Assembly: GCF_965227665.1 (NCBI RefSeq)
Contig: NZ_OZ245767.1
Span: forward strand, 1,955,638-2,019,637
Reading direction: 5' to 3'
DNA: 64,000 bases
DNA from: Reyranella sp.
GTDB taxonomy: Bacteria > Pseudomonadota > Alphaproteobacteria > Reyranellales > Reyranellaceae
In this document: positions 837-18,969 of the stretch, one piece after another
Layout of the letters: each line of letters opens with the position of its first letter
Numbering within the stretch: the first letter of the stretch is position 1
Program-made: the position numbers and the translations under genes
Notes under the pieces: model-generated
What the model was told of the DNA's origin: nothing
What the model saw: the letters and a program-made list of their open reading frames with translations, nothing else
Databases searched by the model: none

Positions 837-1496
837 ATGCGCGAGAGTCCAAAAGAGACCTTGACCGCCCTGATCAGCCGGACGCTGGCCGACCGGATCA
901 TCGCTGGCCAGATCGAACCGGGGGCGCGGCTGCGGCAAGACCACGTTGCCGAGGAGTTCGGGGCAAGCCACGTTCCCGTCCGAGAAGCGTTCAGGCGTCT
1001 CGAGGCTCAGGGGTTGGCAGTGAGCGAACCGCGGCGCGGCGTCCGGGTTGCCGCATTCGACCTCTCCGAGATCAAGGAGGTCGCCGAGATGCGGGCCGCG
1101 CTCGAGGTCCTGGCGCTCCGACATGCCGCGCCTCACCTCACATCAGCCATTCTCGATGCGGCCGAGGAGGCCACCCGGGTGGGCGACAACTCGCACGACG
1201 TCCGATCATGGGAGGACGCAAACCAGCGCTTCCACCGCTTGATCATCGAGCCCTGCCGCATGCCGCGCCTGCTGGCCGCGATCGACGACCTTCACGCCGC
1301 AAGCGCTCGCTTTCTCTTCTCGACATGGCAATCGAACTGGGAGGCGAGGACCGATCACGATCACCGGGCCATTCTCGTGGCCCTGCGCAAAGGCGATCTC
1401 GAAAGCGCTTGCTCGATCTTGGCTCGGCACGTCCAGTGGATCGGCAATCGACCGCCCCTGGCCACGAAGCGGGAAAACGCACTGTCCGATCGCTAG
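837..1496 (+). CDS. bioR: GntR-family (FadR/FCD subfamily) transcriptional regulator, probable biotin regulator BioR
   Basis: N-terminal GntR wHTH (QDHVAEEFGASHVPVREAFRRLEAQGL) followed by an FCD-like helical C-terminal domain. It sits next to bioY-bioB and is flanked by BioR boxes. Confidence 0.75.
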   Translation: MRESPKETLTALISRTLADRIIAGQIEPGARLRQDHVAEEFGASHVPVREAFRRLEAQGLAVSEPRRGVRVAAFDLSEIKEVAEMRAALEVLALRHAAPHLTSAILDAAEEATRVGDNSHDVRSWEDANQRFHRLIIEPCRMPRLLAAIDDLHAASARFLFSTWQSNWEARTDHDHRAILVALRKGDLESACSILARHVQWIGNRPPLATKRENALSDR

Positions 1497-1548
1497 CGGC
1501 TCCGCATTATCGACGATTTTCCTTGAACCAGATTCAGCTCCGTGGATT

Positions 1549-1579
1549 CAATAGATAATTGTCCAGTAATTATCTATAC
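1549..1579. promoter_or_regulatory. two BioR boxes in the bioY-bioB promoter/leader
   Basis: CAATAGATAA (1549..1558) is the reverse complement of TTATCTATTG, an 8/10 match. TTATCTATAC (1570..1579) is a 9/10 match to TTATMKATAA. Both lie 13-43 nt upstream of the bioY ATG at 1592. Confidence 0.65.
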
Positions 1580-1591
1580 TTTGGAGCTCGT

Positions 1592-2158
1592 ATGACTGAG
1601 GCCATCGCCCCCGCAATGCCGGGGGTCCGCTCGGCAGTGAAGACTGCCGCAATGATCGTTCTCGGCGTGGCACTCATCACCCTTTGCGCGAAGCTGCGCG
1701 TGCCCTCCTGGCCCGTCCCGATGACGCTGCACACGCTTGCGGTCATGGCGCTTGCCGTCACGGTGGGACCCCGCCTGGCGGCTGCCACGTTCTGCACCTA
1801 TCTCGCCATCGGGGCCGCAGGCCTGCCCGTCTTCTCGGGAACGCCCGAACGCGGGATCGGACTGGCCTATATGGTCGGCCCGACGGGCGGCTATCTCCTC
1901 GGCTATCTGTCGGCGAGCTGGATCGCCGGCACGCTTGCCCGCGACCGTGGCCCGGTGGGCAGAGCTCTGGCGATGCTGGCGGGCCTTGCCGTGGTCTATG
2001 CGGCGGGCCTGTCCTGGCTCGCGCTCTACGTCCCGGCGAATCAGATCGTCGCACTCGGCTTTGCCCCGTTCATCCTGGGAGATCTCACCAACATTGCCAT
2101 CGTGGCTGTCGGCGGGGCACTGCTCCCGGCGCGCCTGCGCGGGAAGATCGTGCAATGA
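1592..2158 (+). CDS. bioY: biotin transporter BioY (ECF S-component type)
   Basis: Multi-TM protein with BioY-like motifs ([12 protein letters not shown]..., [17 protein letters not shown]). I prefer ATG 1592 (GGAG at 1583) over the TTG at 1559, which lies inside the operator region. The stop overlaps the bioB start as ATGA. Confidence 0.8.
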
Positions 2159-3168
2159 GCCGCCCCGTCGATCCGGTCGGCCCGTCCTACTGCGACCTGC
2201 GTCATGACTGGACAGAGGCTGAAGCGCGCCGCATCCACGATCTTCCCTTGCCCGAACTTCTGTTCAGCGCGCAGGAAGCCCATCGTCGGCACTTCGATCC
2301 GGCGGCGATCGAGACGGCGACCCTGCTGTCGATCAAGACCGGCGGATGTCCGGAGGATTGCGGCTATTGCTCGCAAAGCGCCAGGTGGGACACCGGCGTG
2401 AAGGCGGGCAAGCTGATGCAGGTGGAAAGCGTGCTGGCGGAAGCACGGCGCGCCAAGTCGGGCGGCGCCACGCGCTTCTGCATGGGCGCGGCCTGGCGGA
2501 GCCCGAAAGATCGCGACCTGGAGGCGGTCTGCGCGATGATCGAAGGGGTGAAGGCCCTGGGGCTGGAAACCTGCGTGACGCTCGGCATGTTGACGCCATC
2601 CCAGGTCGAGCGCCTCGCGGAAGCCGGCCTCGACTACTACAACCACAATATCGATACGTCGCGGGACTTCTACGGCGAGATCGTCACCACGCGCCGGATG
2701 GATGACCGGCTGGAGACGCTCGACAATGTACGAGCGGGCGGCATCAAGGTCTGCTGCGGTGGCATCGTCGGCATGGGCGAAACCTCGATCGATCGCATTT
2801 CCATGCTGGTGACGCTCGCGACCTTGGAACGTCACCCGGAGAGCGTGCCCTTGAACATGTGGCAGCCGATCAGCGGGACACCCGTCATGGACACCGCCCA
2901 ACCGGTCGATCCCATCGCGTTCGTCAGACTGGTTGCCCTGGCCCGAATCCTGATGCCGCAAAGCGTGGTGCGGCTGTCGGCCGGACGCGGCGCCATGAGC
3001 GACGAGGCCCAAGCGCTCTGCTTCATCGCCGGCGCCAACTCCATCTTCACGGGAAACGTGCTTCTGACCACCGGCAACCCGGATCGCGACAGAGACGCCC
3101 TTCTGCTGGAGAGACTCGGCATGCGCACGCTCGCAGCGCCTCCATCGGACCCTGCCCCAACGGCGTGA
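2155..3168 (+). CDS. bioB: biotin synthase BioB (radical SAM)
   Basis: Radical-SAM CxxxCxxC motif ([13 protein letters not shown]) and BioB-like sequence along the whole length. Start taken at ATG 2155 within ORF 1684..3168. Confidence 0.9.
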
Positions 3169-3391
3169 GGCCTCCTGCGGATGAACCGGGATGAGTTCCA
3201 TTCTCCCGCTCCATCCGCAGATCATCTCGAGGGACAGAGCATCTGATCATTCGATCGACCGTTTGCGGACGATGCCTCCCCGAGAAACGCACGATCTGGG
3301 CCGTGTTGGTGACAGTCTCCGTCCTCGCGATTGCGCTGGGTCCGACCGGCCATCGTCGCGATGGCCACGAGGTCTCAGGTGAACGCCTGGC

Positions 3392-4702
3392 TCAGAATTC
3401 CATCAGATTGTCGCGGAACAGTTTGTGCGCATAGGCCTTGCGCGTAAGGCCTCGACGCTGCAACTCGGGCACGAGGCCGTCGCAGATTTCCATGATGTAG
3501 CGTCGGTCGAAGTGGGCGTTGAACAGCAGGAAGCCGTCGCCGCCCACCTCCTGCATGATCTCCTGCATCAGGCCGGCAACGTGATCGGGCGTGCCCACCA
3601 GGTCGATGCCCTGCCGGCTGTTGAGCCCGCTCGCCAGCGAGCGCGGCGTCTTGCCGATCCACTTGGCGAGCGAGGACTGGTGCCCGTTGGTCCGCAGGTG
3701 CTCCGGCAGCGGCTCGTCGGGATCGAACTGCGCGAAGTCGATGTTGGTGAGGCGCGACATGCCCGAGAGCTGCAGGTCGAGATGCTTGCCGAAATCCTCC
3801 TGCTCGAGCCGCCGGCGATCGCGCGCGGCTTCCATCGTCGTGTCGACGATCGGATAGGCAAGGAACAGCACCTTGATGTCGTCCGGATTGCGCCCCCAGC
3901 CCGCGGCCTGGCGGCGGATGTCCTCTCGGAAGCTCTTCATGCCTTCGACGGAGACGGCGTTGGTGATGATCGTGTCGGCCCACCGGGACGCGAAGGCCTG
4001 GCCACGAGGCGAGCCGCCGGCCTGGCAGATCGGCACCCTTCCCTGGGGCGAACGCGGCGCGTTGATCGGTCCGCGCACCTTGAAATACTTGCCCTCATGG
4101 TTGATCGGACGGACCTTCCTGCCGTCGGCAAACATCGGAATGGTACGATCGAGCACGACCGCATCCTCGTCCCACGCCTCCCACAGGCGCGTGACCACGT
4201 CGGCGAATTCGTCGGCGACGTCGTATCGCTCGTCGTGCGGCCGCTGGCCGGCATTACCGTAGTTTTCGGCGGCGCCGTCATTGCTGCCGGTGACGCAGTT
4301 CCAGCCGATCCGGCCCTCGGTGACGTGATCCAGCGAGTTGACGAGGCGGGCCAGCAGGTAGGGTGGATACTCCGAAGTCGAGAGCGTCGGCACGAGGCCG
4401 AGATGCTTGGTCGCCATCGCCAGCCAGGGGACCAGCACGGCGGGATCAAGCTTGGGCGAGCTGGCGGCGTACTTGAGATAGGTGTCGTGGCTGCCCTGGT
4501 AGGTGTAGGGCACCATCGAGGAGTCCTCGATGATCATGTAGTCGAAGCAGCCGCGCTCCAGTCCCTTCGCCAGGTCGACGAAGATGTCAGGCATCATCCA
4601 GCGATGCTTGTCGTATTCGGTGCCGGGCCACATCGAGCGCCACGCCTTCGGGCCATAGCCCTGCGACAGGAACCAGGCGAGATGGAAATGATCCTTTGCC
4701 AT
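3392..4702 (-). CDS. LLM-class FMN-dependent monooxygenase, NtaA/SnaA/DszA family (copy 1)
   Basis: 436 aa. N-terminus FHLAWFL..., then CFDYMIIEDSS, GRIGWNCVTGSND and KYFKVRGPINAPRSPQGRVPICQAGGS, typical of nitrilotriacetate monooxygenase component A-like enzymes. Confidence 0.85.
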   Translation of the reverse strand: MAKDHFHLAWFLSQGYGPKAWRSMWPGTEYDKHRWMMPDIFVDLAKGLERGCFDYMIIEDSSMVPYTYQGSHDTYLKYAASSPKLDPAVLVPWLAMATKHLGLVPTLSTSEYPPYLLARLVNSLDHVTEGRIGWNCVTGSNDGAAENYGNAGQRPHDERYDVADEFADVVTRLWEAWDEDAVVLDRTIPMFADGRKVRPINHEGKYFKVRGPINAPRSPQGRVPICQAGGSPRGQAFASRWADTIITNAVSVEGMKSFREDIRRQAAGWGRNPDDIKVLFLAYPIVDTTMEAARDRRRLEQEDFGKHLDLQLSGMSRLTNIDFAQFDPDEPLPEHLRTNGHQSSLAKWIGKTPRSLASGLNSRQGIDLVGTPDHVAGLMQEIMQEVGGDGFLLFNAHFDRRYIMEICDGLVPELQRRGLTRKAYAHKLFRDNLMEF

Positions 4703-4704
4703 GT

Positions 4705-5415
4705 TCAGGCGACCGCCTTCTTCGGCAGGCTCGCGACGAACTCGGCCTGGCTCATCGCCAGGTCGGGGCGAAAGCCACGGTCGCGATAGAATTTCTCGTA
4801 GATCTTGAATTCCTCCAGCACGCGCCGCAGTTCGGTGACAGCATCGTCATGCAAGTCGACGCGCGCATCGATGTCGAAGTGATCGGGCTCGGAGGCCACG
4901 AAGATCGCGGCCGACCGTTCGGTGAGATGGCCCTCGTTGCCGACTTGCCCGCCGGCATCGCGTCCGCCTTCGAGCGCGGCCAACAGCCGGAACTCGAGGT
5001 CGGCGCCGGGATCTGCGAGAAAACCCGCAACGATGCCGTCCAGCACCTCCTGGCCCGCCAGCACATTGCCGAAAGCCACGAAGCCATCGCCCTCGTGGTG
5101 CCCCGCCCAGGCCCGGCAGCCCGGGCCGGTATGGGCGCAGGTCCTGCCCTCACGGTCGATGATAGCGATCTGGCGCCAGTCATGGTCGGGATCGCAGGCC
5201 TTGAGCGCCGCCATCACGCCGGCCGGCGCCATGCCCTGCTCCAGCAGTTCGAGCGCGATCAGGTCGTTGTCCCGCTTCACGTATGCCTGCGTCTTGCAGA
5301 CGCCCGCACCGAATCGGATGCCCTCGCAGCGGCCGCCGGCCGCGATCGAGAAGGTCGTGATGCCGAGGCCGAGACGGCCGGTGTTGGGGCAACGTGCAAT
5401 GATCGAGAAGGTCAT
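4705..5415 (-). CDS. DUF1028 family protein (Ntn-hydrolase fold), paralog 4, subtype B
   Basis: MTFSIIARCPNTGRLGLGITTFSIAAGGRCEG... with conserved RQIAIIDREG, GWAGH and LEGGRDAGGQ. Start overlaps the stop of paralog 3. A 2-nt gap separates it from the monooxygenase. Confidence 0.8.
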   Translation of the reverse strand: MTFSIIARCPNTGRLGLGITTFSIAAGGRCEGIRFGAGVCKTQAYVKRDNDLIALELLEQGMAPAGVMAALKACDPDHDWRQIAIIDREGRTCAHTGPGCRAWAGHHEGDGFVAFGNVLAGQEVLDGIVAGFLADPGADLEFRLLAALEGGRDAGGQVGNEGHLTERSAAIFVASEPDHFDIDARVDLHDDAVTELRRVLEEFKIYEKFYRDRGFRPDLAMSQAEFVASLPKKAVA

Positions 5416-6119
5416 GGCCTCGGCTCCTTCATCGAGGCGATGAACGCCTCCTGCCCGATCGCGCCGCGCGGATTGCGTCCACGGTCGGCGTAGTAGCCCT
5501 CGTACTGCTTGTAGACCGTCCAGACACGGCGCAACTCATCGACCGCCTTGTCGTGCAGGTCGACACGCAGGTCGATATCGGGATGGATATGGCGCGACGA
5601 GACCTGAAGTGCCGCCGAGCGCTCCGTCCGATGGGCCGTCGCATTGCCCTGCCCGCCCGCGTCGCGGCCATATTCCAGGGCCATCAGCAGGCGATGCTCC
5701 AGATCTGCCTCGGGTTCGGCAAGGAAGCCCTCGGCAATCGCCTCGGCGACGTGCTGGCCGCGCAACCCGTTGCCGGTGGAGATGTAGTTCTCGCCCGTGA
5801 CGTCACCCGCCCAGCCGCGCACGTTGGCGCCGGTATAGGCGGCCACCGCGCCGCTGCGGTCGATCACGCCGATCTGGCGATAGCTGTGGTAGGCGTCGTT
5901 GGCCTTGAGTTGCTCGAGGACCGCGTGCGCGCCGAGCCCCTGTGCGAGAAGGCGCAGCGCGATCGCATTGTTGTTCTCGTTGGCATTGGCCTGGCTCACC
6001 GTCACCCCGGCGTTCGATCGGGTCGAATGGGCGTAGCGGCCCACCGTGATCGAATAGGTGGCGATGCCGATACCGAGGCGACCGGTCTTGGCGCAGCGTC
6101 CAAGGATGGTGTAGGTCAT
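5412..6119 (-). CDS. DUF1028 family protein, paralog 3, subtype A
   Basis: MTYTILGRCAKTGRLGIGIATYSITVGRY..., LKANDAYHSYRQIGVIDRSG, GWAGD, LEYGRDAGGQ. 4-nt overlaps at both ends. Confidence 0.8.
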   Translation of the reverse strand: MTYTILGRCAKTGRLGIGIATYSITVGRYAHSTRSNAGVTVSQANANENNNAIALRLLAQGLGAHAVLEQLKANDAYHSYRQIGVIDRSGAVAAYTGANVRGWAGDVTGENYISTGNGLRGQHVAEAIAEGFLAEPEADLEHRLLMALEYGRDAGGQGNATAHRTERSAALQVSSRHIHPDIDLRVDLHDKAVDELRRVWTVYKQYEGYYADRGRNPRGAIGQEAFIASMKEPRP

Positions 6120-6835
6120 GCCCGCTCCTTGACGCGCCGGGCGTCGAGCTGCTTCGCGAAGACGTCCTGCGGGATGGCTTTTGACGGGTCGGTATCCCGG
6201 CCGCGATAGAATTCCTCATAGAGCTTGAATTCCTCGAGCACGCGCCGCAGCTCATCGACCGCCGCTTCATGGACGTCGACGCGAACGTCGACATCGGGAA
6301 AATCGCACCGGTCGACGACCTTGATCGCGGCCGAGCGCTCGGTACGGTGGGCGTCGGCCGGCCCCTGCCCGCCGGCATCGCGGCCGCCTTCGATGGCCCG
6401 CAGCAGGCGGTATTCCAGCGCATCGTCGGGATTCATAAGGAAGCCCGCGACCATTGCGTCGAGCACCTGCGGACCGAGGAGGCCGTTGCCGAACACGACG
6501 CAATCGGCCACCTCCTTGTGACCCGCCCAGCCACGGCAGCCGGGGCCGGTATGGCCGGCGACCTTGCCATCGCGGTCCATGATCGCAATCTGGCGGAAAC
6601 CGTGCTCGGTGTCGTTGCCGGCAAAGATCTCCATCACCCGCGTGGGCCCGTAGCCCTGCGCCAGGAGCTTGACGCCGAGCGGATCGTTGGTGCGGTTGGG
6701 AAACGCCTGCGTCTTGCAGACGCCGACATTGGCCATCACGCCTTCGCAACGTCCGCCCACCGCCAGCGAATAGGTGGCGATCCCGAGGCCCAGACGGCCC
6801 GTGCGCCGGCAACGCCCGATCACGGAGTAAGTCAT
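6116..6835 (-). CDS. DUF1028 family protein, paralog 2, subtype B
   Basis: MTYSVIGRCRRTGRLGLGIATYSLAVGGRCEG..., FRQIAIMDRDG, GWAGH, IEGGRDAGGQ. 4-nt overlaps at both ends. Confidence 0.8.
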   Translation of the reverse strand: MTYSVIGRCRRTGRLGLGIATYSLAVGGRCEGVMANVGVCKTQAFPNRTNDPLGVKLLAQGYGPTRVMEIFAGNDTEHGFRQIAIMDRDGKVAGHTGPGCRGWAGHKEVADCVVFGNGLLGPQVLDAMVAGFLMNPDDALEYRLLRAIEGGRDAGGQGPADAHRTERSAAIKVVDRCDFPDVDVRVDVHEAAVDELRRVLEEFKLYEEFYRGRDTDPSKAIPQDVFAKQLDARRVKERA

Positions 6836-7548
6836 CGCGTGCCCTCCTGCGCCTGGGCAAGCGTCTGGGCGAAGGCGTACTGCGGAACCGCGTCCTTCGG
6901 GTTCTTCGCTCTCTCCTTGTAGTAGCCGCGATAGAGTTCGTATTCCTCGAAGGCGCGTCGAAGTTCCTCGACCGCCGTGTCGTGCAGGTCGACGCGCAGA
7001 TCGAGTTCGGCGTGATCGTAGTCGCCGTAGACCATCACGGCCGCCGACCGTTCGGGGAGAGGACCATCGTTGCCCGCCTGACCGCCCGCATCCCGTCCCG
7101 CTTCGATCGCCGCGAGGAGTCGGCGCTCGAACGAGATCCCGGCTGCATCTTCATAGGCTTTCGCCATGGCATCGATGACCGCTTTACCCGCCAGCACGTT
7201 GCCCATGGCGACATAGCCGTCACCTGTGACGTGGCCCGCCCAGCCCCGGTTCTTCGGACCGCTATAGGCCGCGAGGCGGCCCAGGCGGTCGATCACCGCG
7301 ATCTGACGGAACTCGTGGTTGGCATCGTTGGCTTTCAGCTCGGTCAGCACGTGCTCGGGCGCGAAACCCTGCGCGAGCAGCCGGAGCGCCAGCGGATTGT
7401 TGCCCTGGTTCACGAACGCCTGGGTCATGGTCGCGCCGGTGTTGCCGCGCAGCCCGGTGCAGTAGAGGCCCACCGTGATCGAATAGGTCGCGATGCCGAT
7501 GCCCACCTGGCCGCTCTTCGGGCAGCGGGCGAGCAGTGTGAAGGTCAT
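6832..7548 (-). CDS. DUF1028 family protein, paralog 1, subtype A
   Basis: Start taken at Met151 of ORF 6832..7998 (MTFTLLARCPKSGQVGIGIATYSITVGLY...), which aligns with the other three paralogs. Its ATG overlaps the LysR stop as ATGA. Confidence 0.8.
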   Translation of the reverse strand: MTFTLLARCPKSGQVGIGIATYSITVGLYCTGLRGNTGATMTQAFVNQGNNPLALRLLAQGFAPEHVLTELKANDANHEFRQIAVIDRLGRLAAYSGPKNRGWAGHVTGDGYVAMGNVLAGKAVIDAMAKAYEDAAGISFERRLLAAIEAGRDAGGQAGNDGPLPERSAAVMVYGDYDHAELDLRVDLHDTAVEELRRAFEEYELYRGYYKERAKNPKDAVPQYAFAQTLAQAQEGTR

Positions 7549-8552
7549 GTGCGTCTGTCTCCCGCCGATCTCTGGGCCGATCCTTTGGCCGCCGCACGCA
7601 CGGAGCGTGCCGAACCGCCGGCCGCGGCCTCGCGCTTCACCGGCGCATAAGCAAGGTCGTGCAAATCCTGGAACTCGCCTTGCAGAAACCGCAGGAACTC
7701 TTCCGCCGCCAGCGGAAGCTGTCGCGCCGAATGCACGATCGCGTCGATGCTTGCGTTGTTCACCAGCCGGTCGCGGATCGGCACGGCGACCAGTTCGCCC
7801 GAGCGCAGATTGTCCCAGGCCGACAGGCGCGAGAGAAAGGTAATGCCATGATTCACCTTCACGAATTCGACCCTGAGCTGGAACGAATTGGTATCGAGCG
7901 ACGGTGCAATATGGATACCGGCAGCCTTGCACGCGACGTCGATCAGGATCCTGCTGCCGGTATGCTTCATCGGCGACGCGATGGGATAGGCGGCGCAATC
8001 GGCCAGCGAGACACGCGGGCGGCCGGCCAGGGGATGATCTGCCGACATTACCGCGACCAGGGGCTCCCGCATCTTGAACACCGTCTCCAGCTCGGCCTCC
8101 GCAGGCGGATAGAAGGCCAGACCGATATCGGTACGGCCCTCGCGAACCGCCGCCACCACTTGGTCGGAGCCGTCGATCGTGATTTCGAACTGAATGCCGG
8201 GATAGCGCCCGCTGAAACGGGCTACGGCGCGCGGCAGCAGGTGGGGCACCAGCGCTTCGATCGACCGTATGCTGACGGTACCGCGGCGCAGCCCCTTCAG
8301 CGCGTCGATTTCCGAGCGGACGCGTTCGACCTGGCGCAGGTTGATCTGGGCGTGGCGCAGGAAGATCTCCCCGGCCGACGTCAGTTCGACGCCGCGCGCA
8401 TGGCGATGGAACAGGGGAACGCCGAAATCCTCCTCGAGCTTCTGGACCTGCCGACTGAGCGCGGACTGGGCAATGTGCAACTCCTCCGCCGCCTCGCGAA
8501 TCGATCCGTGCCGCGCAATCACTGAGAAATAGCGCAAAGACTGGTTGATCAT
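7545..8552 (-). CDS. LysR-family transcriptional regulator with an Ala/Arg-rich C-terminal tail
   Basis: MINQSLRYFSVIARHGSIREAAEELHIAQSALSRQVQKLEEDFGVPLFHR is a LysR wHTH, followed by a substrate-binding domain. About 35 extra C-terminal residues run up to the ATGA junction with DUF1028 paralog 1. Confidence 0.85.
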   Translation of the reverse strand: MINQSLRYFSVIARHGSIREAAEELHIAQSALSRQVQKLEEDFGVPLFHRHARGVELTSAGEIFLRHAQINLRQVERVRSEIDALKGLRRGTVSIRSIEALVPHLLPRAVARFSGRYPGIQFEITIDGSDQVVAAVREGRTDIGLAFYPPAEAELETVFKMREPLVAVMSADHPLAGRPRVSLADCAAYPIASPMKHTGSRILIDVACKAAGIHIAPSLDTNSFQLRVEFVKVNHGITFLSRLSAWDNLRSGELVAVPIRDRLVNNASIDAIVHSARQLPLAAEEFLRFLQGEFQDLHDLAYAPVKREAAAGGSARSVRAAAKGSAQRSAGDRRT

Positions 8553-8579
8553 TTCATGGACTCCGACTGCCCCGAGACT

Positions 8580-8596
8580 GATGCCGCATCGGCATC
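8580..8596. promoter_or_regulatory. 17-bp perfect palindrome GATGCCGcatCGGCATC (contains T-N11-A), candidate LysR operator
   Basis: Read directly in the 131-bp divergent intergenic region, 28 nt upstream of the LysR start and 88 nt upstream of the first DUF4392 gene. Confidence 0.45.
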
Positions 8597-8683
8597 GCAT
8601 CAACGCCTAAATGGCGCTTGTCGGATCACCGGCCGAAGCGCCCAATCCGACTCTGACAGCGAGAGGGGATCGTCATTCTCGAC

Positions 8684-9694
8684 ATGGTAGGAGAGGCCGT
8701 CGACCGGCTGATCACGATCGAAGCCAAGAACCACGGCATGCCGCACGGCATCCTGCTGCCGATGTACCTCGCGGCCCGCAAGGTCGCAGGCGACAAGCCG
8801 GTCACGATGGCGGCGGCCAAAGGCCTGCAGAAGGTGCTCGGCAAGGGCGACGTCGTCTTCATCATGACCGGCGCGGGATACGAGCCCACCATGCCCAAGG
8901 GGGAGAGCGACGGCCCGCCGGGCGCCGCCTCTCTCGCGCGCATCCTCTATCGCGGCCTCGGCGCCGTCCCGGTCTTCGTGAACGAGGCCTGCCATGCCGA
9001 TCCGATCGTGGCCTCCAGCGAGGCCGCCGGCCTGATGGTGAAGCCGTTCGAGCAGGCGCGCGATCGTCATCTCGGTGCTGCCATCGAGAACGCACCGGAG
9101 GACCAGTCCAAGATCGACGCGTGGATCGCCGAGATCTACGCGAAGTACCAGCCCAAGGCGGTCGTTGCAGCGGAACGCCTCGGCGCCGGGGCCGACGGCA
9201 ACGTCCATACCGCGACCGGCCTGCCGCTTACCGGCCCGGAGTCCAAGTTCCAGGGCTGCGTCGACATCGGCGGCGTCGTCACCGAGGCCAACAAGCGCGG
9301 GATCTTCTCGGTCGGGATCGGCGACCATGGCAACGAGCTTGGCTTCGGCACGATCTACGACACGGTCGTCGAGACCATGCCCAAGGGCAAGGCGCTCGCC
9401 ACCGTCGTGAAGACCGACGTCGTGATCCCGGCGATGATGTCGAACTGGGGCTGCTACGGCATCGAGGCGTGCCTCGCCTATCTCCTGAAGAAGCCGCAGC
9501 TCATCCATTCGCCGGATATGGAAAAGCGCATCGTGCAGGCCTGCCTCGACGCCGGCGGCCTCGAGGCGATGTACTGCACGACAGAATTCCTGGTCGACGG
9601 CCTCGATGGCGAGACGTCGATGGCCTGCATGCAGTTCCTGTCCAACATCGTGCGCAAGAATCTCGAGCCGCCCGACGCGGGCCTCACGCATTGA
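8684..9694 (+). CDS. DUF4392 (D-glutamate cyclase-like) domain protein, paralog 1
   Basis: 336 aa. Carries motifs I associate with DUF4392: GESDGPPGAASLARIL, VGIGDHGNELGFG, MSNWGCYGIEA. Confidence 0.7.
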   Translation: MVGEAVDRLITIEAKNHGMPHGILLPMYLAARKVAGDKPVTMAAAKGLQKVLGKGDVVFIMTGAGYEPTMPKGESDGPPGAASLARILYRGLGAVPVFVNEACHADPIVASSEAAGLMVKPFEQARDRHLGAAIENAPEDQSKIDAWIAEIYAKYQPKAVVAAERLGAGADGNVHTATGLPLTGPESKFQGCVDIGGVVTEANKRGIFSVGIGDHGNELGFGTIYDTVVETMPKGKALATVVKTDVVIPAMMSNWGCYGIEACLAYLLKKPQLIHSPDMEKRIVQACLDAGGLEAMYCTTEFLVDGLDGETSMACMQFLSNIVRKNLEPPDAGLTH

Positions 9695-9729: not shown

Positions 9730-10758
9730 ATGGCTATCGACGAGATCGTCGGCGATTCAATCGACCGCGCCATCAACATCGAGATGCGCTTCCGCGTGGG
9801 ACTGCCGCGCGGCGTCACCTATCCGCTCTACGAGGCGGCGCGCACGAAGCAGAAGAAGCCGCTCGCGTGGCTGGCGGCCAAGCTGCTGAAGGACTCGATC
9901 AAGCCCGGCGACAACGTGTTCGTCATCACCGGCGCGGGAACGCCGCCCGGCCTGCCCGCCGGCGAGACCGATGGCCCCCCGGGTGCGGCGGCTATTGCAC
10001 GTGCGATCGAGTTCGGCCTGGGCGGCAAGCCGATCCTGATCAGCGAAGAGCGCAACATGCCGGCGGTCATCAAGTCGACCGAGGCGGCCGGCCTCGCCGT
10101 CTACGACGAGGCGCTGTTCAAGCAGCGCCGCTCCTGCGCCATGGCGATCAACTTCCCGCTTGGGGATGCTGCCGGAAAGAAGGCCGCGGCCGCACTCATC
10201 AAGAAATACAAGCCGGCCGCGATGGTGTTCATCGAGAAGGTCGGGCCCAACATCAAGGGCGTCTACCATTCGATCATGGGCACGCCCCGCACGCCGGACA
10301 AGATCGCCAGTGCCTACCATCTGGCGGACCAGGCCAAGACGGCCGGCATTCCCACGATCGGCATCGGCGATGGCGGCAACGAGATCGGATGCGGCGTCAT
10401 CAAGGAGGCGGTGGCGGCGATCCAGCCGTTCGGCAAGGACTGCGGCTGCCCCTGCCACGGCGGCGTTGGCACGGTTACTGAATGTGATGTGCTGGTCTTC
10501 GCTGCCGTGTCGAACTGGGGTGCCTACGGCATCGCGGCGGCGCTGGCCGGCCATTTGGGAGACCGCGAGATCCTGCACGACGAAGCGACGGAACTCCGGA
10601 TCGTGCAGGCGAGCGTCGATGGCGGGGCGATGGACGGGGCCTATTCCCGCCTCATCCCCTACGTCGACGGCACGTCGGACAAGATGCAGGCCGCGTTGAT
10701 CACGATGCTTCATCAGATCGTCGAGAACGGGCTGAAGGAATACGACCGAGGGTTCTGA
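9730..10758 (+). CDS. DUF4392 (D-glutamate cyclase-like) domain protein, paralog 2
   Basis: 342 aa. GETDGPPGAAAIARAI, IGIGDGGNEIGCG, VSNWGAYGIAA. Also has a CGCPCHGG cluster that paralog 1 lacks. Confidence 0.7.
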   Translation: MAIDEIVGDSIDRAINIEMRFRVGLPRGVTYPLYEAARTKQKKPLAWLAAKLLKDSIKPGDNVFVITGAGTPPGLPAGETDGPPGAAAIARAIEFGLGGKPILISEERNMPAVIKSTEAAGLAVYDEALFKQRRSCAMAINFPLGDAAGKKAAAALIKKYKPAAMVFIEKVGPNIKGVYHSIMGTPRTPDKIASAYHLADQAKTAGIPTIGIGDGGNEIGCGVIKEAVAAIQPFGKDCGCPCHGGVGTVTECDVLVFAAVSNWGAYGIAAALAGHLGDREILHDEATELRIVQASVDGGAMDGAYSRLIPYVDGTSDKMQAALITMLHQIVENGLKEYDRGF

Positions 10759-10780
10759 AATCTCATACTTGGGGGCAGCC

Positions 10781-12358
10781 ATGACCAAAGGGTTCCGGAT
10801 GACGAGCGGCCAGGGAAGCAATCGGGGCATGACGCGTCGCGGCTTCGGGGCGGGCGCTCTCGGTGCAGGCCTTATACTGGGCACAGGCCGCGCGCCTGCG
10901 CTGGCACAGGGCAGGCGCGACCTGCGCGTCGGCACCTGGGGCGGCGAGTTCGGCAATCTCAGCCCGGTGATCCGCTCGGACATCCAGGGAAGCCTGGTGA
11001 TGTACAACGTGTTCGACGGGTTGGTGAGCATCAACTACAAGGACCGCGCCATCGTACCGAACATGGCGCTGGAGTGGAGCAACCCCGATCCGCTGACCTG
11101 GCGCATCAAGATTCGCGAAGGCGTGAAGTGGCAGAAGGGCTTCGGCGAATTCACCGCCGAGGACGTCGTCTATACCTTCGAGTTCCACATGTCCTCGAAG
11201 AGCTTCCAGATGGGAACCGCGCTGTTCCCGATCGACACGGTGAAGAGCGACGGCAAGTACGTGGTCGAAATGAAGACCAAGCAGCCGTTCGGCGCCTTCC
11301 CCGGCGTCACCATGGGATACGGCGGCACGATCATCTCGTCGAAGGCGCACAAGGAGATGGGCAACGACGCCTACAGCGCCACGCCCGTCGGCAACGGCCC
11401 CTTCCAGATCGAGAGCAAGAAGGGCACGGAGATCGTGCTGGCCAGGCATCCCGACTACTGGCGGCCGGGCTTCCCCAAGCTCGACCGCGTCGTCTATCGC
11501 GCCATCCCCGACTCGACCACCCGCCTGCAGGCGCTGCAGAAGGGTGAACTCGACTTCGTGACCCATCCCGATCCCAAGGACATGAAGGCCCTGCGCAAGG
11601 ACGCGAAATACACGATCAATTCGACGCCGGGCTGGTCGTGGGACTACCAGCAGTTCAACCTCAAGGCCAAGCCGGACGCGCCCTACCAGAACAAGCTGGT
11701 GCGCCAGGCGATCTCCTATGCGATCGACCGCGAGGCGATCGTGAACGAGATCTACTACGGCGAGGCGATCCCCACCGACAACCAGATCCCCGCCGGCTAC
11801 ATGGGCCATCGTCAGCCGATGCTGAAGTACCCGAAGAACGGCGACCTCAAGAAGGCCAAGGAGTTGATGGCCCAGGCCGGCGTGAAGGGCTACGAGGTCG
11901 AGGTCATCACCTCCGACAAGGACTGGCTGCGCAAGGAGCTCGAGCTGGTCGCCGCGATGGTCAGCCAGATCGGCATCACCTACAAGATCAAGAGCATGGA
12001 CATGGGCGGCTTCAACAGCCTGTGGCTCAACAAGAAATTCGACCAGCATCTCGAAGACATCACCCTGGTCGCGCCCGACCCCGACGCGACGTCGTGGTGG
12101 TTCCTGAACAGCAAGGGAAACGCCTCAGGCTACAGCGTGGCGTCGATGGACGCGATGCTGGACGGCGCGCGCAGCGAACTCGACCCGGCCAAGCGCGAGG
12201 CCATGTACCACAAGATCGTCGACACGACGCTCGAAGAATGCCCGATCATCTATCACTGCAACACGAACAACATCCAGATCTACAACAAGAAGCTGGTGGG
12301 CTTCGAACCGGCGCCGCAGGAATACACCGAGAAACTCGACGCGGTCTCGTGGTCCTGA
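10781..12358 (+). CDS. ABC transporter substrate-binding protein, family 5 (DppA/OppA/NikA type), Tat-type signal
   Basis: The twin-arginine leader (MTRRGFGAGALGAGLILGTGRAPALA) is followed by a peptide/nickel SBP-like sequence. Start is ambiguous (10769 TTG, 10781 ATG or 10829 ATG). Confidence 0.85.
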   Translation: MTKGFRMTSGQGSNRGMTRRGFGAGALGAGLILGTGRAPALAQGRRDLRVGTWGGEFGNLSPVIRSDIQGSLVMYNVFDGLVSINYKDRAIVPNMALEWSNPDPLTWRIKIREGVKWQKGFGEFTAEDVVYTFEFHMSSKSFQMGTALFPIDTVKSDGKYVVEMKTKQPFGAFPGVTMGYGGTIISSKAHKEMGNDAYSATPVGNGPFQIESKKGTEIVLARHPDYWRPGFPKLDRVVYRAIPDSTTRLQALQKGELDFVTHPDPKDMKALRKDAKYTINSTPGWSWDYQQFNLKAKPDAPYQNKLVRQAISYAIDREAIVNEIYYGEAIPTDNQIPAGYMGHRQPMLKYPKNGDLKKAKELMAQAGVKGYEVEVITSDKDWLRKELELVAAMVSQIGITYKIKSMDMGGFNSLWLNKKFDQHLEDITLVAPDPDATSWWFLNSKGNASGYSVASMDAMLDGARSELDPAKREAMYHKIVDTTLEECPIIYHCNTNNIQIYNKKLVGFEPAPQEYTEKLDAVSWS

Positions 12359-12400: not shown

Positions 12401-13351
12401 ATGTGGTCCTATCTCGGACGTCGCCTGATTCAGGTGCCGCTGGTCCTGCTCGTCGTGTCGCTGATGACGTTCGCCATCACGCGCGCGACGCCGGGCGATC
12501 CGGCGACGATCATGCTGGGCATGCAGACGTCGCCCGAGGCGGTGACGGCAATGCGCGCGGAGTTCAACCTGGACCGTTCGCTGCCCGAGCAGTACGCGCT
12601 GTGGATCGCCAAGGTTGCGACCGGCGATCTCGGCCGGTCGATGCGCCTGAACGATCGCGTCACGACCCTGATCGCCGAGCGGCTGCCGATCAGCCTGCAG
12701 CTGGCCTGTGCCGGCATGCTGTTCGCGCTCGCGGTCTCGATCCCCCTGGGTGTGATTGCGGCGCTGCGGCGCAACAGCTGGATCGATTATCTCTGTACCG
12801 GCTACACGGTGATGGGCTTTGCCGTGCCGAATTTCGGCCTGGCACTGATCCTGATCTACGTCTTCTCGATCCAGCTCGATTGGCTGCCGATCACCGGCAT
12901 CGGCTCATCCGAGGCCGAGGCAGGCGGTTTGTGGAAGCGCTACAGCCCCTTCATCCTTCCCGCCGTTGCGCTGGGCGCCCTGCAGACGGCGATGCTGACC
13001 CGCCTGCTGCGCTCCAGCATGATCGACGTCCTGTCGCAGGACTACATGCGCACCGCACGCGCCAAGGGCCTGCTGCCCGCGACCATCGTGATCATTCATG
13101 CGCTCAAGAACGCGATGATCCCCTTCGTCACCATGGCCGCCGTCCAGTTCGGCTACATGATCGGCGTCCAGGTGACGATCGAGTACATCTTCGCGGTGCC
13201 CGGCATGGGCTCGGCGGTGCTGAATGCCGTGGTCAACCGCGACTTCCCGGTGATTCAGGGCTTCACGCTGGTGATCGCAGTCTTCTTCCTGCTGATGAAC
13301 ATCTTCGCGGACATGATGTACGCGCTGCTCGATCCGCGAATCCGGTACTGA
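12401..13351 (+). CDS. ABC transporter permease (DppB/OppB type)
   Basis: 316 aa, six predicted TM segments and an EAA-like loop (YMRTARAKGL). Confidence 0.85.
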   Translation: MWSYLGRRLIQVPLVLLVVSLMTFAITRATPGDPATIMLGMQTSPEAVTAMRAEFNLDRSLPEQYALWIAKVATGDLGRSMRLNDRVTTLIAERLPISLQLACAGMLFALAVSIPLGVIAALRRNSWIDYLCTGYTVMGFAVPNFGLALILIYVFSIQLDWLPITGIGSSEAEAGGLWKRYSPFILPAVALGALQTAMLTRLLRSSMIDVLSQDYMRTARAKGLLPATIVIIHALKNAMIPFVTMAAVQFGYMIGVQVTIEYIFAVPGMGSAVLNAVVNRDFPVIQGFTLVIAVFFLLMNIFADMMYALLDPRIRY

Positions 13352-13352
13352 G

Positions 13353-14252
13353 ATGGCCGACGCGCGCGCCCTGCCCCTGCAATTCCGCGGCTCGCTGGCG
13401 CTGGCCGTGCAGCAGTTTCCGCGCAACCGCGCCGCCACGGTCGGCCTGGCGATCCTGCTCACGATCTGCTTCGCCGCCGCCTTCGCTCCCTGGGTCGCGC
13501 CTTACGATCCGATCCAGATCAAGCTCTCGATGAAGCTGAAGCCGCCGTCGTTCGAGCACCTCATGGGCACCGATCATTTTGGCCGCGACGTGTTCTCGCG
13601 CATGCTCTGGGGCGGACGCACCTCGCTCTCGGTCGGCCTGCTGGTCGTGGGCTTCGCCTTCGTGCTGGGCGTGCCGCTCGGTCTTGCGTCGGGCTATTTC
13701 GGCGGCAAGGTCGACAATGCCCTGATGCGGCTGGTCGATGCCTTCCTCACCTTCCCGCCGCTGCTGCTGGCCGTGGCGCTGGTCGGCCTGCTGGGACCCG
13801 ACATCAAGAACGTGATGCTGGCGCTGGGCCTCGTGCAGGCGCCGATCCTGGCGCGCATGGTGCGCGGCAGCACCCTGGCCGTGCGCGAGGATGTCTATGT
13901 GACGGCCGCCCGCGCGCTGGGCGCCAGTCCGCTGCGCATCGTGCTCTCGCATCTGCTGCGCAACATGGTTTCGCCGATCGTCGTCCAGCTCACCGTCGTC
14001 TTCGCGGCCGCCGTCGTTTCGGAGGCATCGCTCAGCTTCCTGGGCTTCGGGACGCAGCCGCCGGCGCCCAGCTGGGGCCGCGACATGAGCGAAGCCCGCC
14101 GCTTCCTGGGCGACGCGCCGTGGATGTTCCTGGCGCCGACCTCGATCATCGCGGTCTGCGTCCTCAGCATCAACTTCATGGGCGATGGTCTGCGCGATGC
14201 GCTCGACCCGCGCGCCTGGCGCACGCGCCGCAGCGTGGGAACCGAATCATGA
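13353..14252 (+). CDS. ABC transporter permease (DppC/OppC type)
   Basis: 299 aa, N-terminal OppC-like segment and TM core (YVTAARALGASPLRIVLSHLLRN). Confidence 0.85.
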   Translation: MADARALPLQFRGSLALAVQQFPRNRAATVGLAILLTICFAAAFAPWVAPYDPIQIKLSMKLKPPSFEHLMGTDHFGRDVFSRMLWGGRTSLSVGLLVVGFAFVLGVPLGLASGYFGGKVDNALMRLVDAFLTFPPLLLAVALVGLLGPDIKNVMLALGLVQAPILARMVRGSTLAVREDVYVTAARALGASPLRIVLSHLLRNMVSPIVVQLTVVFAAAVVSEASLSFLGFGTQPPAPSWGRDMSEARRFLGDAPWMFLAPTSIIAVCVLSINFMGDGLRDALDPRAWRTRRSVGTES

Positions 14253-15231
14253 GCCTGCTGCGCGTCCGCAACCTCCACACCCGCTTCGCCACGGATCGCG
14301 GCGACGTGCGCGCGGTCAATGGCGTGTCGTTCGATCTCGAAGAGGGCGAGATCCTCGGGCTGGTGGGCGAAAGCGGCAGCGGCAAGAGCGTGACGGCGCT
14401 CTCGATCATGCGGCTCGTGCCCGAGCCGCCGGGCCACATTGCCGCCGACAGCCTGGCCTTCGACGGACGCGAGCTGCTGGGCCTCAGCGAAGCCGAGATG
14501 CGCGAGGAGCGCGGCTCGAGCATGGCGATGATCTTCCAGGACCCGATGCGCTCGCTCAATCCCGTGCTCACCATCGGACGGCAGATCACCGAGGTGCTGC
14601 GCCGCCACCAGAAGCTCGACAAGCCGGCCGCGAAGCGCCGCGCCATCGAGCTGCTGGAGACGGTCGGCATTCCCTCGGCGGAGAAGCGCCTCAGCGCCTA
14701 TCCGCACCAGTTCTCCGGCGGCATGCGCCAGCGCGTCATGATCGCGATCGCGCTGTCCTGCAATCCGCGCCTGCTGATCGCCGACGAGGCCACGACCGCG
14801 CTCGACGTCACCATCCAGGCGCAGATCGTCGACCTGGTGAAGCGCCTCACGCACGAGCGCGGCACCTCGGTGATCTGGATCAGCCACGATCTCGGCGTCG
14901 TCGCGGGCCTCTGCGACAAGGTCAACGTCATGTATGCGGGCAACGTGGTCGAGTCCGGTCCGATCCGCGAGTTGTTCCACCGCCCCAGCCATGGCTACAC
15001 GCTGGGCCTCATGGGCTCGACGCCGAGAGTCGACGGCACCGGCGTGCGCCGCCTGACTCCCATCGAAGGCATGCCGCCCAGCCTGATCGAGCCGATCCCG
15101 CTCTGCCCGTTCCTGCCGCGCTGCCGCGTCGCCGTTCCCGCGTGTCAGACGGTGCCCCCGGAACGCCGCGATTTCGGGGGGAATCACTGGGCCCGCTGCC
15201 TCGCGGATCTGGCACCGGGAGATCGGGCGTC

Positions 15232-15235
<4 letters not shown>
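14249..15235 (+). CDS. ABC transporter ATP-binding protein (DppD/OppD type)
   Basis: Walker A GESGSGKS, signature FSGGMRQR, Walker [13 protein letters not shown], and a C-terminal oligopeptide-type extension. The ATG at 14249 overlaps the permease stop. Confidence 0.9.
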
Positions 15236-16198
<963 letters not shown>

Positions 16199-16206
<8 letters not shown>

Positions 16207-17506
16207 GCCGTTTCATCTCGCCTGGTTCCTTGGCCAGAGCTTCGCCTCCAAGAACTGGCGCTCGATGTGGGCCGGCAGCGCGTCCGACGTCCAGCGGTGG
16301 ATGATGCCCGACCTCTTCATCGACCTCGCCAAGGGGATGGAGCGCGGTTGCTTCGACTACATGATCATCGAGGACTCCTCGAACGTGCCCTATACCTACA
16401 AGGGCAACCACGATACCTACCTGCAATACGCGCAGGGCACGCCCAAGCTCGACCCGCCGGTCCTCGTGCCATACCTGGCACAGCACACCACGCATCTCGG
16501 CCTCGTCCCGACGCTCTCGGTTTCGGAGTACCCGCCCTATCTCGCGGCGCGCCTCATCAATTCGCTCGACCATGTCACCGAGGGCCGTATCGGCTGGAAT
16601 TGCGTCACCGGGAGCAACGACGGCACCGCGCAGAACTACGGCCACGAAAAGCACCGGCCGCATGACGAGCGCTACGAGGTCGCCGACGAGTTCGCCGACG
16701 TCGTCACCAGGCTCTGGGAAGCCTGGGATGAGGATGCGGTCGTGCTCGATCGCGACACCCCGATGTTCGCCGACGGCAAGAAGGTCCGGCCGATCAATCA
16801 CGAGGGCAAGTATTTCAAGGTGCGCGGCCCGATCAACGCGCCGCGCTCGCCTCAGGGACGGGTGCCGATCTGCCAGGCGGGGGGCTCGGCGGCCGGCAAG
16901 ATGTTCGCGTCGAAGTGGGCCGACACCATCATCACCGAAGGCTCCAACGTCGCGAAGATGAAAGCCTATCGCCAGGAGGTGCGCAGCCATGCCGCCTCGA
17001 TCGGCCGCAATCCGGACGATATCAAGGTGCTATTCCTGTGCTCTCCGATCGTCGACACGACGATGGAAGCGGCGCGCGAGCGGCGCCGGCTGCAGCAGGA
17101 GGATTCGTTGAAGTACGTCGACATGCAGCTGGCCGGGATGTCGCGACTGACCGGCATCGACTTTTCCAAGTTCGATCTCGACGAGAACCTGCCGCTCACG
17201 CTGACGACCAACGGCCACCAGTCCTCGCTCGCCCGCTGGCTCGGCAAGCCCCTGCGCGAGATCGTGCGCGGTTACGCCGCCAAGGGCAGCCTCGATTACA
17301 CCGGCACGCCCGAGCATGTGGCGGGCGTGATGCGCGAGGTCATGGAAGAAGTGGGCGGCGACGGCTTCCTGATCTCCGATACGCCCATCGACCGCCGCGG
17401 CGTGATGGAGGTCTGCGACGGGCTGGTGCCGGAGCTGCAACGCCAGGGCCTGACCCGCAAGGCCTATGCCCACAAGCATCTGCGCGACAACCTGTTGGAA
17501 TTCTAG
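16199..17506 (+). CDS. LLM-class FMN-dependent monooxygenase, NtaA/SnaA/DszA family (copy 2)
   Basis: Aligns end to end with the protein encoded at 3392..4702, with long identical runs such as RLWEAWDEDAVVLDR and KVRPINHEGKYFKVRGPINAPRSPQGRVPICQAGGS. Start taken at MPKPFHLAWFL (16199); 16184 is also possible. Confidence 0.85.
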
Positions 17507-17933: not shown

Positions 17934-18782
17934 TCAGGCGCGCAGCCTCTCGGCGTGCCATCTCAGATGGTCTTCGATGAAGGTCTGGATGAACCAGTAG
18001 GAATGGTCGTAGGCCTCGTGCCGTCGCAAGATCAGCTCCTGTCCGGCGCTTGCGGCCGCCGCTTCGAGCGCGTCGGGCCGCAGCTGGGGTGCGAGGAACT
18101 GGTCCTTCAGGCCCTGGTCGACGAGGATCGGGCCTGCGAAACGGTTCCCCTGCTTCAACAGCTCGCTCGCATCCCATGCCGCCCAGCGCGCACGTTCCGG
18201 GCCGAGATAGTTGCCGAAGGCCTTTTCGCCCCAGGGCACGGCGACGGGATTGCAGATCGGCGCGAAGGCCGAGACGGACCGGTAGGCCTGCGGATTCTTC
18301 AAGGCGACCACAAGGGCGCCATGGCCGCCCATCGAGTGACCGAACACGCCGCGCCGGGCCGCATCGACCGGAAAGGTCGCCTCGACCAGTGCAGGCAGTT
18401 CGCGCGTCACATAGGAGTACATGCGATAGTTCCGCCGCCACGGCTCGGCCTCGGCATCGAGGTAGAAGCCCGCGCCCGTGCCGAAATCCCAGTCGTCCTC
18501 CTCGCCCGGCAGGCCGAGACCGCGCGGGCTCGTATCCGGCGCCACGAGCATGAGACCGAGCTCGGCGGCATATCGCAAGGCATTTGCCTTCATCATGAAG
18601 GTCTCTTCCGTACAGGTGAGACCCGCCAGGAAGTAGAGCGCCGGGAGTGGCCGCGCCGACGCGTTCGACGGAACGAACACCGAGAACCTCATCTCGACGC
18701 CGATCTCCGTCGAGGCATGGCTGTAGAAGCCGATCGTCCCGCCGAAGCAGGCCTGCTCGCTCCGCGTCGTCATCCCGGCCAT
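17934..18782 (-). CDS. fghA: S-formylglutathione hydrolase (esterase D family)
   Basis: [11 protein letters not shown]..., [35 protein letters not shown]. Start taken at [10 protein letters not shown] (18782); 18773 is an alternative. Confidence 0.85.
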
Positions 18783-18969
18783 CTGCTCACCACACTCAAC
18801 GGCTACACGGCCTTCTGAATACAGGAAGGCGGTGCCGAGCACAGCGCTTTGGAAGCCATTGTGCAAGCGAACAATCAGCTTGAAGTCCCACAGGCGCGCC
18901 GTTCATATCCGCGCCCCGGAGTGGCACCGTGTGCGCTCCCGTCTCTCTCATTCGACCCAGAGGTGTTAC

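Follow-up and report, generated by a model that had tools for sequence, protein, structure and literature searches.

Four coupled DUF1028 genes in a Reyranella locus: alternating A and B types and a possible doubled two-gene module

The DUF1028 quartet and its fold

The genomic stretch analyzed here comprises 64,000 nucleotides of Reyranella sp. (contig NZ_OZ245767.1, positions 1,955,638 to 2,019,637; hereafter, the window) and contains four consecutive genes for proteins of the DUF1028 family (PF06267). They are denoted as P1–P4 in the order of transcription and represent four orthologue groups, Q1–Q4, of two types, A and B:

7548..6832, minus strand: P1 (Q1), A-type DUF1028 protein of 238 aa, starting MTFTLL; PF06267 E = 4e-55
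6835..6116, minus strand: P2 (Q2), B-type DUF1028 protein of 239 aa, starting MTYSVI, with Lys41 and Gly150; PF06267 E = 4e-49
6119..5412, minus strand: P3 (Q3), A-like DUF1028 protein of 235 aa, starting MTYTIL; PF06267 E = 3e-48
5415..4705, minus strand: P4 (Q4), B-type DUF1028 protein of 236 aa, starting MTFSII, with Lys41 and Gly150; PF06267 E = 1e-50

In a Pfam scan, all four proteins cover the complete profile (positions 1–193 of 193) with scores of 165–187 bits against a cut-off of 26.2, and their recognition as four DUF1028 paralogues in the initial annotation thus holds at full length (E = 3e-48 to 4e-55). The P1/P2, P2/P3, and P3/P4 junctions are ATGA stop/start overlaps, with a Shine-Dalgarno sequence of the GGAG type ahead of each one inside the upstream gene, and every protein begins with Met-Thr-(Phe/Tyr); both features had been described correctly. 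A hidden Markov model (HMM) built from P1–P4 detected no fifth DUF1028 copy in the 64-kb window. The four genes are 60–79% identical at the DNA level in a repeat search, which rules out recent gene conversion or recent duplication.

The closest structural relative is SPO2555 from Ruegeria (Silicibacter) pomeroyi (PDB 2IMH), which P1 matches with E = 1.6e-21 and approximately 32% identity. An AlphaFold2 model was prepared for P1 only (predicted local distance difference test score 88.7; predicted template-modelling (TM) score 0.85). Foldseek aligned this model with 2IMH_B at E = 2e-16, with TM-scores of 0.73/0.80 and a root-mean-square deviation of 2.0 Å. The next-best folds are the proteasome beta subunits and HslV (probability ~1.0, TM-scores of 0.37–0.53, deviations of ~7 Å), and glycosylasparaginase and an acyltransferase precursor are among the further matches. 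The order of the secondary structure elements predicted for P1 and the Foldseek matches are consistent with the four-layer alpha-beta-beta-alpha core of the N-terminal nucleophile (Ntn) hydrolases. Strand 1 is predicted at residues 2–8, and Thr2 is consequently located where Ntn nucleophiles sit in the P1 model. The Ntn-hydrolase-like fold proposed from the N-terminal residues is therefore borne out, and membership in the DUF1028/SPO2555-like Ntn-hydrolases is established. Membership in the proteasome/HslV family is not, given the weak structural match and the lack of a profile match: DUF1028 is the sole Pfam hit of P1–P4 at E ≤ 0.01, without PF00227. In SCOPe, SPO2555 represents the seventh Thr-type Ntn-hydrolase family, described as "so far uncharacterized" and with "no peer-reviewed data" (PMC9140057). 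The open reading frames (ORFs) of the cytoplasmic DUF1028 members begin with Met-Thr and contain no propeptide, and thus lack the hallmark of autoproteolytic activation. By analogy with HslV, the preference of methionine aminopeptidase for small second residues suggests that Met1 would be removed and the Thr exposed.

A and B types, pairing and the catalytic core

The quartet was compared with DUF1028 genes detected by HMM scanning in 78 loci of species-representative genomes and, in addition, on contigs with P1 orthologues. A second, B-seeded sample comprised 80 metagenome contigs, in which 72 B genes had sufficient upstream sequence. The family is large, with approximately 6,000 clusters at 50% identity (E ≤ 1e-3), and its genes were seen in four arrangements: singletons (S), pairs (D1-D2), quartets (Q1–Q4), and divergent pairs (R1-R2). 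The coupled D1-D2 pairs were seen in Burkholderiales, in a range of Alphaproteobacteria, and on contigs labelled Streptomyces. Quartets are conserved in soil bacteria resembling Reyranella: about 22 distinct loci carry one, under labels such as Reyranella, Reyranellaceae, and "Enhydrobacter", and the closest are 91–93% identical to P1. Every quartet locus with intact flanks keeps all four orthologue groups. R1-R2 is a very divergent coupled pair, approximately 35–40% identical to Q1–Q4, with an SBP_bac_5 ATP-binding cassette (ABC) transporter of its own. It lies a few kilobases from the quartet in some Reyranella genomes (L001 16241–17664; L002 14907–16327; also L013, L014, L017, and L020) and is absent from the window. 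Since R1 and R2 are mutual closest relatives (bootstrap 98%), DUF1028 pairing appears to have arisen more than once.

The initial annotation sorted the four paralogues by eye into two alternating subtypes. The motifs quoted for them are present, although the Cys motif GPGC is restricted to the window's own subclade, a limit that had been missed. Identity is 51.5% between P1 and P3 and 55.9% between P2 and P4, as compared with 45.8–50.6% for the remaining pairs. Among the parsimony-informative sites of the four window sequences, 14 support the grouping 13|24, 3 support 12|34, and 7 support 14|23 (binomial p = 0.010), so that the A/B signal from the window alone is modest. When orthologues from the ~22 other loci were sampled, all 20,000 of 20,000 four-point quartets returned the split (Q1,Q3|Q2,Q4). 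By neighbour-joining, each of Q1–Q4 forms an orthologue clade with bootstrap values of 93–100% (100% for both Q1 and Q3). Since these clades are robust, the duplications that produced the quartet are older than the sampled Reyranellaceae. The B side is well defined, with 98% support for a Q2+Q4+D2 clade and 84% for Q2 and Q4 as sister groups. Lys41 is present in 124/124 B-type sequences (24/24 in Q2 and 23/23 in Q4) and is absent from all A-type and singleton sequences, and Gly150 is common to Q2, Q4, and D2. His95 and Pro122 are further A/B-specific residues. The mean preference for the D1 over the D2 HMM is +69 bits for Q1 and +15 bits for Q3 (minimum 0.4), as opposed to −45 bits for Q2 and −30 bits for Q4 (positive values indicate D1).

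The A side speaks less favourably for a paired origin. The monophyly of Q1 and Q3 has a bootstrap value of only 29%, close to the 27% for a grouping of Q3 with the B types. Q3 is the least clearly typed member, with a poorly supported placement relative to Q1 and B. Both the sisterhood of Q1 and Q3 and their relation to D1 are left unsettled by the neighbour-joining bootstrap and the four-point tests. The "A" type rests largely on retained ancestral states. With this caveat about its weak A side, the A-B-A-B order is confirmed by pairwise alignment, by the phylogeny with other DUF1028 proteins, and by the unanimous four-point tests.

The spacing of the genes provides further information on the organization of the quartet:

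Q1/Q2 junction: −4 nt in 22/22 quartets
Q3/Q4 junction: −4 to +6 nt in all quartets
Q2/Q3 junction: −4 nt in 11 and +8 to +204 nt in 11 of 22 quartets
Simple D-pair junction: −4 nt in 18/20
R-pair junction: −4 nt in 6/6

These spacings support a (Q1Q2)(Q3Q4) organization at the sequence level. In the metagenome loci, an A gene lies directly upstream of 71 of the 72 assessable simple-pair B genes, in 68 cases with the 4-nt overlap, and the A gene of the remaining one is 2.4 kb away. Both P1/P2 and P3/P4 match this module pattern, in which A immediately precedes a B gene carrying Lys41 and Gly150 and overlaps it by 4 nt. Three loci with B first and an A gene 2–3 kb downstream (L050 1072–4795, L067 3035–6921, and L117 4001–7824) are the sole exceptions found to the rule that A precedes and overlaps B.

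The duplication of an ancestral two-gene module, as put forward in the initial annotation, is accordingly upheld in part. The B-side clades, the widespread free-standing A-B pairs, and the junction pattern fit it, while the A-side phylogeny leaves its half of the proposal unsettled. As the best explanation of the whole, we consider it an even call that the quartet consists of an A-B module present twice in tandem, which became fixed in Reyranellaceae-like Alphaproteobacteria.

The catalytic core separates the two types in the simple pairs. The family-core positions, defined from 94 diverse representatives, are T2, G16, G27, Q43, D75, R81, Q82, G116, N117, R143, G155, G156, S168, D183, R185, and D187; these 16 residues are invariant (100%) within the Q1–Q4 orthologue sets and reach a conservation of at least 85% among the 94 representatives. 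The N-terminal Thr is found in 86 of the 94 and in all Q1–Q4, singleton, and B-type genes, and is thus conserved family-wide. T2, Q43, N117, and R143 are jointly kept in 76/77 D2 (B) sequences, whereas at least one of them is altered in 68/72 D1 (A) sequences of simple pairs, and N117 is kept in only 8% of D1. Residue 2 is not Thr in 13/72 D1 versus 0/77 D2 sequences (Fisher p = 4e-5), the replacements being Ser in nine, Asp in two, Ala in one, and Gly in one. The same asymmetry is observed in the independent R1-R2 pair, where R1 carries Q43M. Lys41 should share a face with Gln43, because the two are two residues apart on the predicted strand 3, and this expected placement suggests an altered active site in the B types.

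Genomic neighbourhood and candidate function

The quartet lies between a regulatory gene and a monooxygenase gene and faces a divergent transporter operon:

7545..8552, minus strand: LysR-type transcriptional regulator (Pfam HTH_1, E = 9e-25; LysR_substrate, E = 1e-46)
3392..4702, minus strand: LLM1, NtaA/DmoA-family FMN-dependent luciferase-like monooxygenase, last gene of the operon (PF00296, E = 7e-41; TIGR03860, E = 1.7e-119)
8684..9694, plus strand: GLUCM-like_C (DUF4392, D-glutamate-cyclase-like) protein 1, first gene of the divergent operon (PF14336, E = 5.6e-57)
9730..10758, plus strand: GLUCM-like_C protein 2, 36% identical to protein 1 (PF14336, E = 1e-60)
10769..12358, plus strand: family-5 (Dpp/Opp/GsiB/opine-type) ABC substrate-binding protein (NCBIfam NikA, GsiB, Opp4A, and DppA, all under the equivalog cut-offs)
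12401–13351 and 13353–14252, plus strand: two ABC permeases (synteny with BPD_transp_1/OppC_N genes in L001/L002)
~14249–15235 and ~15232–16206, plus strand: two putative ABC ATPases with inferred starts (Walker motif in the translations; synteny with ABC_tran+oligo_HPY genes in L001/L002)
16196..17506, plus strand: LLM2, second NtaA/DmoA-family monooxygenase, end of the transporter operon (TIGR03860, E = 1.6e-118)

Two junctions at the edges of the quartet were absent from the initial annotation: the TGA stop codon of lysR overlaps the ATG of P1 as ATGA, and the LLM1 gene begins 2 nt past the P4 stop codon. An alternative TTG start of lysR at 8603 is possible, and the ATG at 8552 suits the HTH profile. 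The regulator has a low-complexity C-terminal extension of approximately 30 aa (...REAAAGGSARSVRAAAKGS..GDRR[ST]; window positions 7545–7640, minus strand), which is kept together with the ATGA overlap with Q1 in the window's subclade (L004–L010, L022, and L029). In the other Reyranellaceae, a 305-aa LysR is separated from Q1 by a gap of 53–287 nt. Because the lysR extension overlaps the Q1 start, the sequence implies that transcription of the quartet in the window's subclade must come through lysR or from a promoter within it. A promoter and terminator scan of positions 3100–8800 found nothing. In L012 and L021, the Q1 start is overlapped by 4 nt not by lysR but by an ABC-transporter ATPase gene (C-terminal motif ...CRFRTRCP...); judged by gene order, the quartet of these two loci is appended straight onto the transporter operon.

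This environment is conserved. A LysR gene, two to three GLUCM-like genes, and a Dpp-type (SBP_bac_5) ABC set surround every quartet with flanking sequence, GLUCM-like protein 1 being divergent from LysR in all of these loci. LLM1 adjoins the quartet in most related loci, and homologues of the second permease (PermB) co-occur with quartets. The tandem GLUCM-like paralogues number two in the window, three in several relatives (L001 5786–8901), and up to six or seven matching ORF segments in L056; the GLUCM-like proteins have TON_0340 as their PDB relative. In the loci examined, GLUCM-like paralogues always stand alongside DUF1028 and a Dpp-type ABC importer. NCBIfam contains no model for either the DUF1028 or the GLUCM-like proteins. 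Each of the two divergent operons ends distally in one of the two monooxygenases, which share 318/431 identities (74%, BLASTP). Their nearest solved relatives are DszA, DmoA, LadA, YtnJ/MoxC, and the nitrilotriacetate (NTA)/EDTA monooxygenases, and the genes examined at window positions 1–21,000 included none identified as a flavin reductase. The substrate-binding protein matches AapF, YliB/GsiB, AgaA (agropinic acid), DppA, and HbpA in the PDB. An assignment of the substrate from this homology was rejected as unspecific, since the E-values of these matches are alike.

The simple pairs adjoin genes for TctC receptors, TauD, PrpD, RidA, CobW, and M24/creatinase-type peptidases. In the annotated neighbourhoods of related loci, no gene for an AAA+ unfoldase was noted. 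The context thus points to small-molecule amide catabolism and not to proteolysis. We conclude that the DUF1028 proteins are predicted cytoplasmic amidohydrolases that would catabolize an imported small peptide-like compound. The functions of the two uncharacterised families DUF4392 and DUF1028 may be solved together, and the conserved neighbourhood of LysR, Dpp-type importer, DUF4392, and NtaA-type genes provides a route to both at once.

The genes farther out look unrelated to the DUF1028 locus. By-eye reading of the translations placed a GntR-like regulator, a BioY-like membrane protein, and a biotin-synthase-like radical-SAM ORF (CxxxCxxC) at 837–3168 on the plus strand, downstream of LLM1, and an esterase-D-like ORF and a long Tex-like ORF at 17934–21321, beyond LLM2.

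Subunit composition and comparison with known systems

The strict pairing of the two types raises the question of their subunit composition. A degenerate A subunit kept strictly beside an intact B subunit is, on sequence grounds, best explained by a heteromer, which is favoured because in simple pairs the decaying A gene is always kept directly upstream of the intact B gene. This is the strongest, albeit indirect, argument for the hetero-oligomer of the initial annotation. On the basis of this co-occurrence and asymmetric decay, we give an even chance to the formation of hetero-oligomers by A and B subunits. In such a mechanism, each protein would remain in the cytoplasm without a propeptide, methionine aminopeptidase would strip Met1, and the freed Thr would act as nucleophile and general base, as in HslV. 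Mixed oligomers would be built from A and B subunits, Q1 pairing with Q2 and Q3 with Q4, to give up to four related, distinct active sites, and those of the B type would additionally bear Lys41, two positions away from the invariant Gln43 on strand beta-3. A small peptide-like compound, such as a di- or tripeptide or a gamma-glutamyl or opine/lactam-type compound, would enter through the divergently encoded Dpp-type ABC transporter, and an amide bond in it would be cleaved. The two D-glutamate-cyclase-like proteins and the two NtaA-type flavin monooxygenases would process the compound further, and the co-encoded LysR would presumably control the locus.

Several observations count against a mixed complex. 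The quartets keep all four of T2, Q43, N117, and R143 (Q1 23/23, Q2 24/24, Q3 22/22, and Q4 23/23), and because the full core is retained, none of the four proteins needs a partner for catalysis and stand-alone isozymes are possible. Singleton DUF1028 genes share the GLUCM/ABC context (L042, L048, L052, and L064; also L056), where one homomeric enzyme can apparently suffice. The ATGA overlaps also tie the quartet to LysR or an ABC ATPase, and this arrangement reads as common operon architecture here instead of a marker of complexes. The overlaps are real, and as an argument for a complex, as used in the initial annotation, they carry little weight. Moreover, for a large family with a solved structure, no functional study or enzymatic activity of any DUF1028 protein was found in the searchable literature.

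An alternative proposal is that the four proteins are independent homomeric isozymes, which would act on different substrates of one family and be co-transcribed for a shared pathway without forming a mixed complex. The complete core in all four, the singletons in the same context elsewhere, and the non-specificity of the overlaps agree with it, as does the paralogue expansion across the locus, with two LLM proteins at 74% identity and two to three GLUCM-like proteins. Isozymes would, however, leave unexplained the strict order of A upstream of B and the Q1/Q2 overlap in 22/22 quartets; moreover, the two members of the homologous simple pairs look obligately linked, A being degenerate, and the four orthologue groups are all retained in every locus with intact flanks. 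We regard isozymes as a serious, if less likely, rival of the mixed complex. The asymmetric decay could alternatively mean that, within a heteromer, only the B-type subunits Q2 and Q4 are catalytic, with Q1 and Q3 as scaffolds or regulators, like the proteasome alpha or inactive beta subunits. The loss of T2, Q43, N117, or R143 from 68/72 simple-pair A proteins next to intact B proteins fits such a division, as does the Q43M substitution in R1. In the quartets, however, Q1 (23/23) and Q3 (22/22) are argued to be under catalytic constraint because they keep the four core residues and are conserved to a similar degree within their groups as the B members (73–82%). B-only catalysis is thus unlikely for the quartet. 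The least probable alternative, which we consider very unlikely, is a self-compartmentalizing, proteasome- or HslV-like ring protease of four different subunits that degrades proteins or peptides. It accords with the ranking of the proteasome beta subunits and HslV as the nearest folds after 2IMH, with the N-terminal Thr after the initiator Met as in HslV, and with multiple paralogous subunits that recall the eukaryotic proteasome. On the other side stand the low TM-scores and large deviations of those matches, the absence of a Pfam Proteasome match at E ≤ 0.01 and of an AAA+ unfoldase partner among the annotated neighbours of related loci, and the conserved neighbours, all of which are small-molecule transport or oxidation genes. 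The Asp17/Lys33 pair of the proteasome was likewise not identified, and Lys41 on strand 3 is found in the B types only.

Returning to the mixed A/B complex, its most far-reaching form would be a single cytoplasmic amidase of four subunits (A-B-A'-B'), whose four Thr sites would not be equivalent and which would act on an imported metabolite together with the DUF4392 proteins. DUF1028 would then be a second, independent case among Ntn-hydrolases of the path taken by proteasomes, starting as a homomer, passing through an obligate A/B heteromer in which one partner decays catalytically, and ending in an assembly of several paralogues. We view this extended form as rather doubtful. If the heteromer is real, the locus would provide a compact bacterial model for the diversification of paralogous Ntn-hydrolase subunits. 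DUF1028 repeatedly forms coupled pairs, in which the A member of simple pairs loses core residues and the B member gains Lys41. New with respect to the record are the A/B differentiation, the coupled and obligate pairing in which catalytic residues are lost asymmetrically, and a module that has been doubled in Reyranellaceae while its four subunits stayed intact. These A/B findings translate into testable hypotheses on subunit composition and on the residues to mutate, and the quartet offers a useful lead that can be tested, without being a surprise.

Within the family, SPO2555 (2IMH) resembles the window proteins in its full-length match to the same Pfam family, in the Thr right after the initiator Met, and in the same C-terminal helical extension. 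It is known as a single protein from a structural-genomics deposit, whereas the window genes belong to A and B types that have diverged and are arranged as coupled pairs and a quartet, and Lys41 and Gly150 of the B types set them apart from SPO2555. A search for natural A-B fusion proteins ("Rosetta stone") returned only secreted tandem fusions of near-identical halves. Three secreted tandem-DUF1028 proteins (P0129, P0173, and P0228; 648–676 aa) have signal peptides and TPR-like or peptidoglycan-binding-like linkers, and their halves are recent copies of each other and not A and B types. Their nucleophile position (Thr; Ser in P0228) is internal, unlike in the Met-Thr cytoplasmic forms, and they would therefore need cleavage by signal peptidase or autoproteolysis. 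Their architecture hints at a dimer as the smallest working form of the family.

In E. coli HslV, the Thr nucleophile is exposed by Met removal. HslV and the 20S proteasome beta subunits share with DUF1028 the alpha-beta-beta-alpha Ntn fold and a Thr at the mature N-terminus, both as predicted for DUF1028. Gene duplication in proteasomes led to hetero-oligomers that mix active and inactive paralogues, which the decay of A in DUF1028 pairs resembles. The two differ from DUF1028 in the weak structural match, the absence of a Pfam hit, and a DUF1028 neighbourhood of small-molecule catabolism and ABC import. A parallel in gene content is the E. coli iaaA-gsiABCD operon, which encodes the isoaspartyl peptidase/asparaginase IaaA with the glutathione ABC importer. 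Like the window locus, it combines the gene of a Thr-type Ntn-hydrolase with those of a family-5 (Dpp-like) ABC importer, and the window's binding protein matches GsiB/YliB. IaaA belongs to Asparaginase_2 and is an alpha/beta heterodimer formed by autoproteolysis of one precursor, whereas the window subunits come from separate genes without propeptides, and the GLUCM-like and NtaA-type monooxygenase genes of the window have no counterpart in iaaA-gsiABCD. Import followed by cytoplasmic amide hydrolysis, as in iaaA-gsiABCD, is a plausible functional analogy for the DUF1028 locus.

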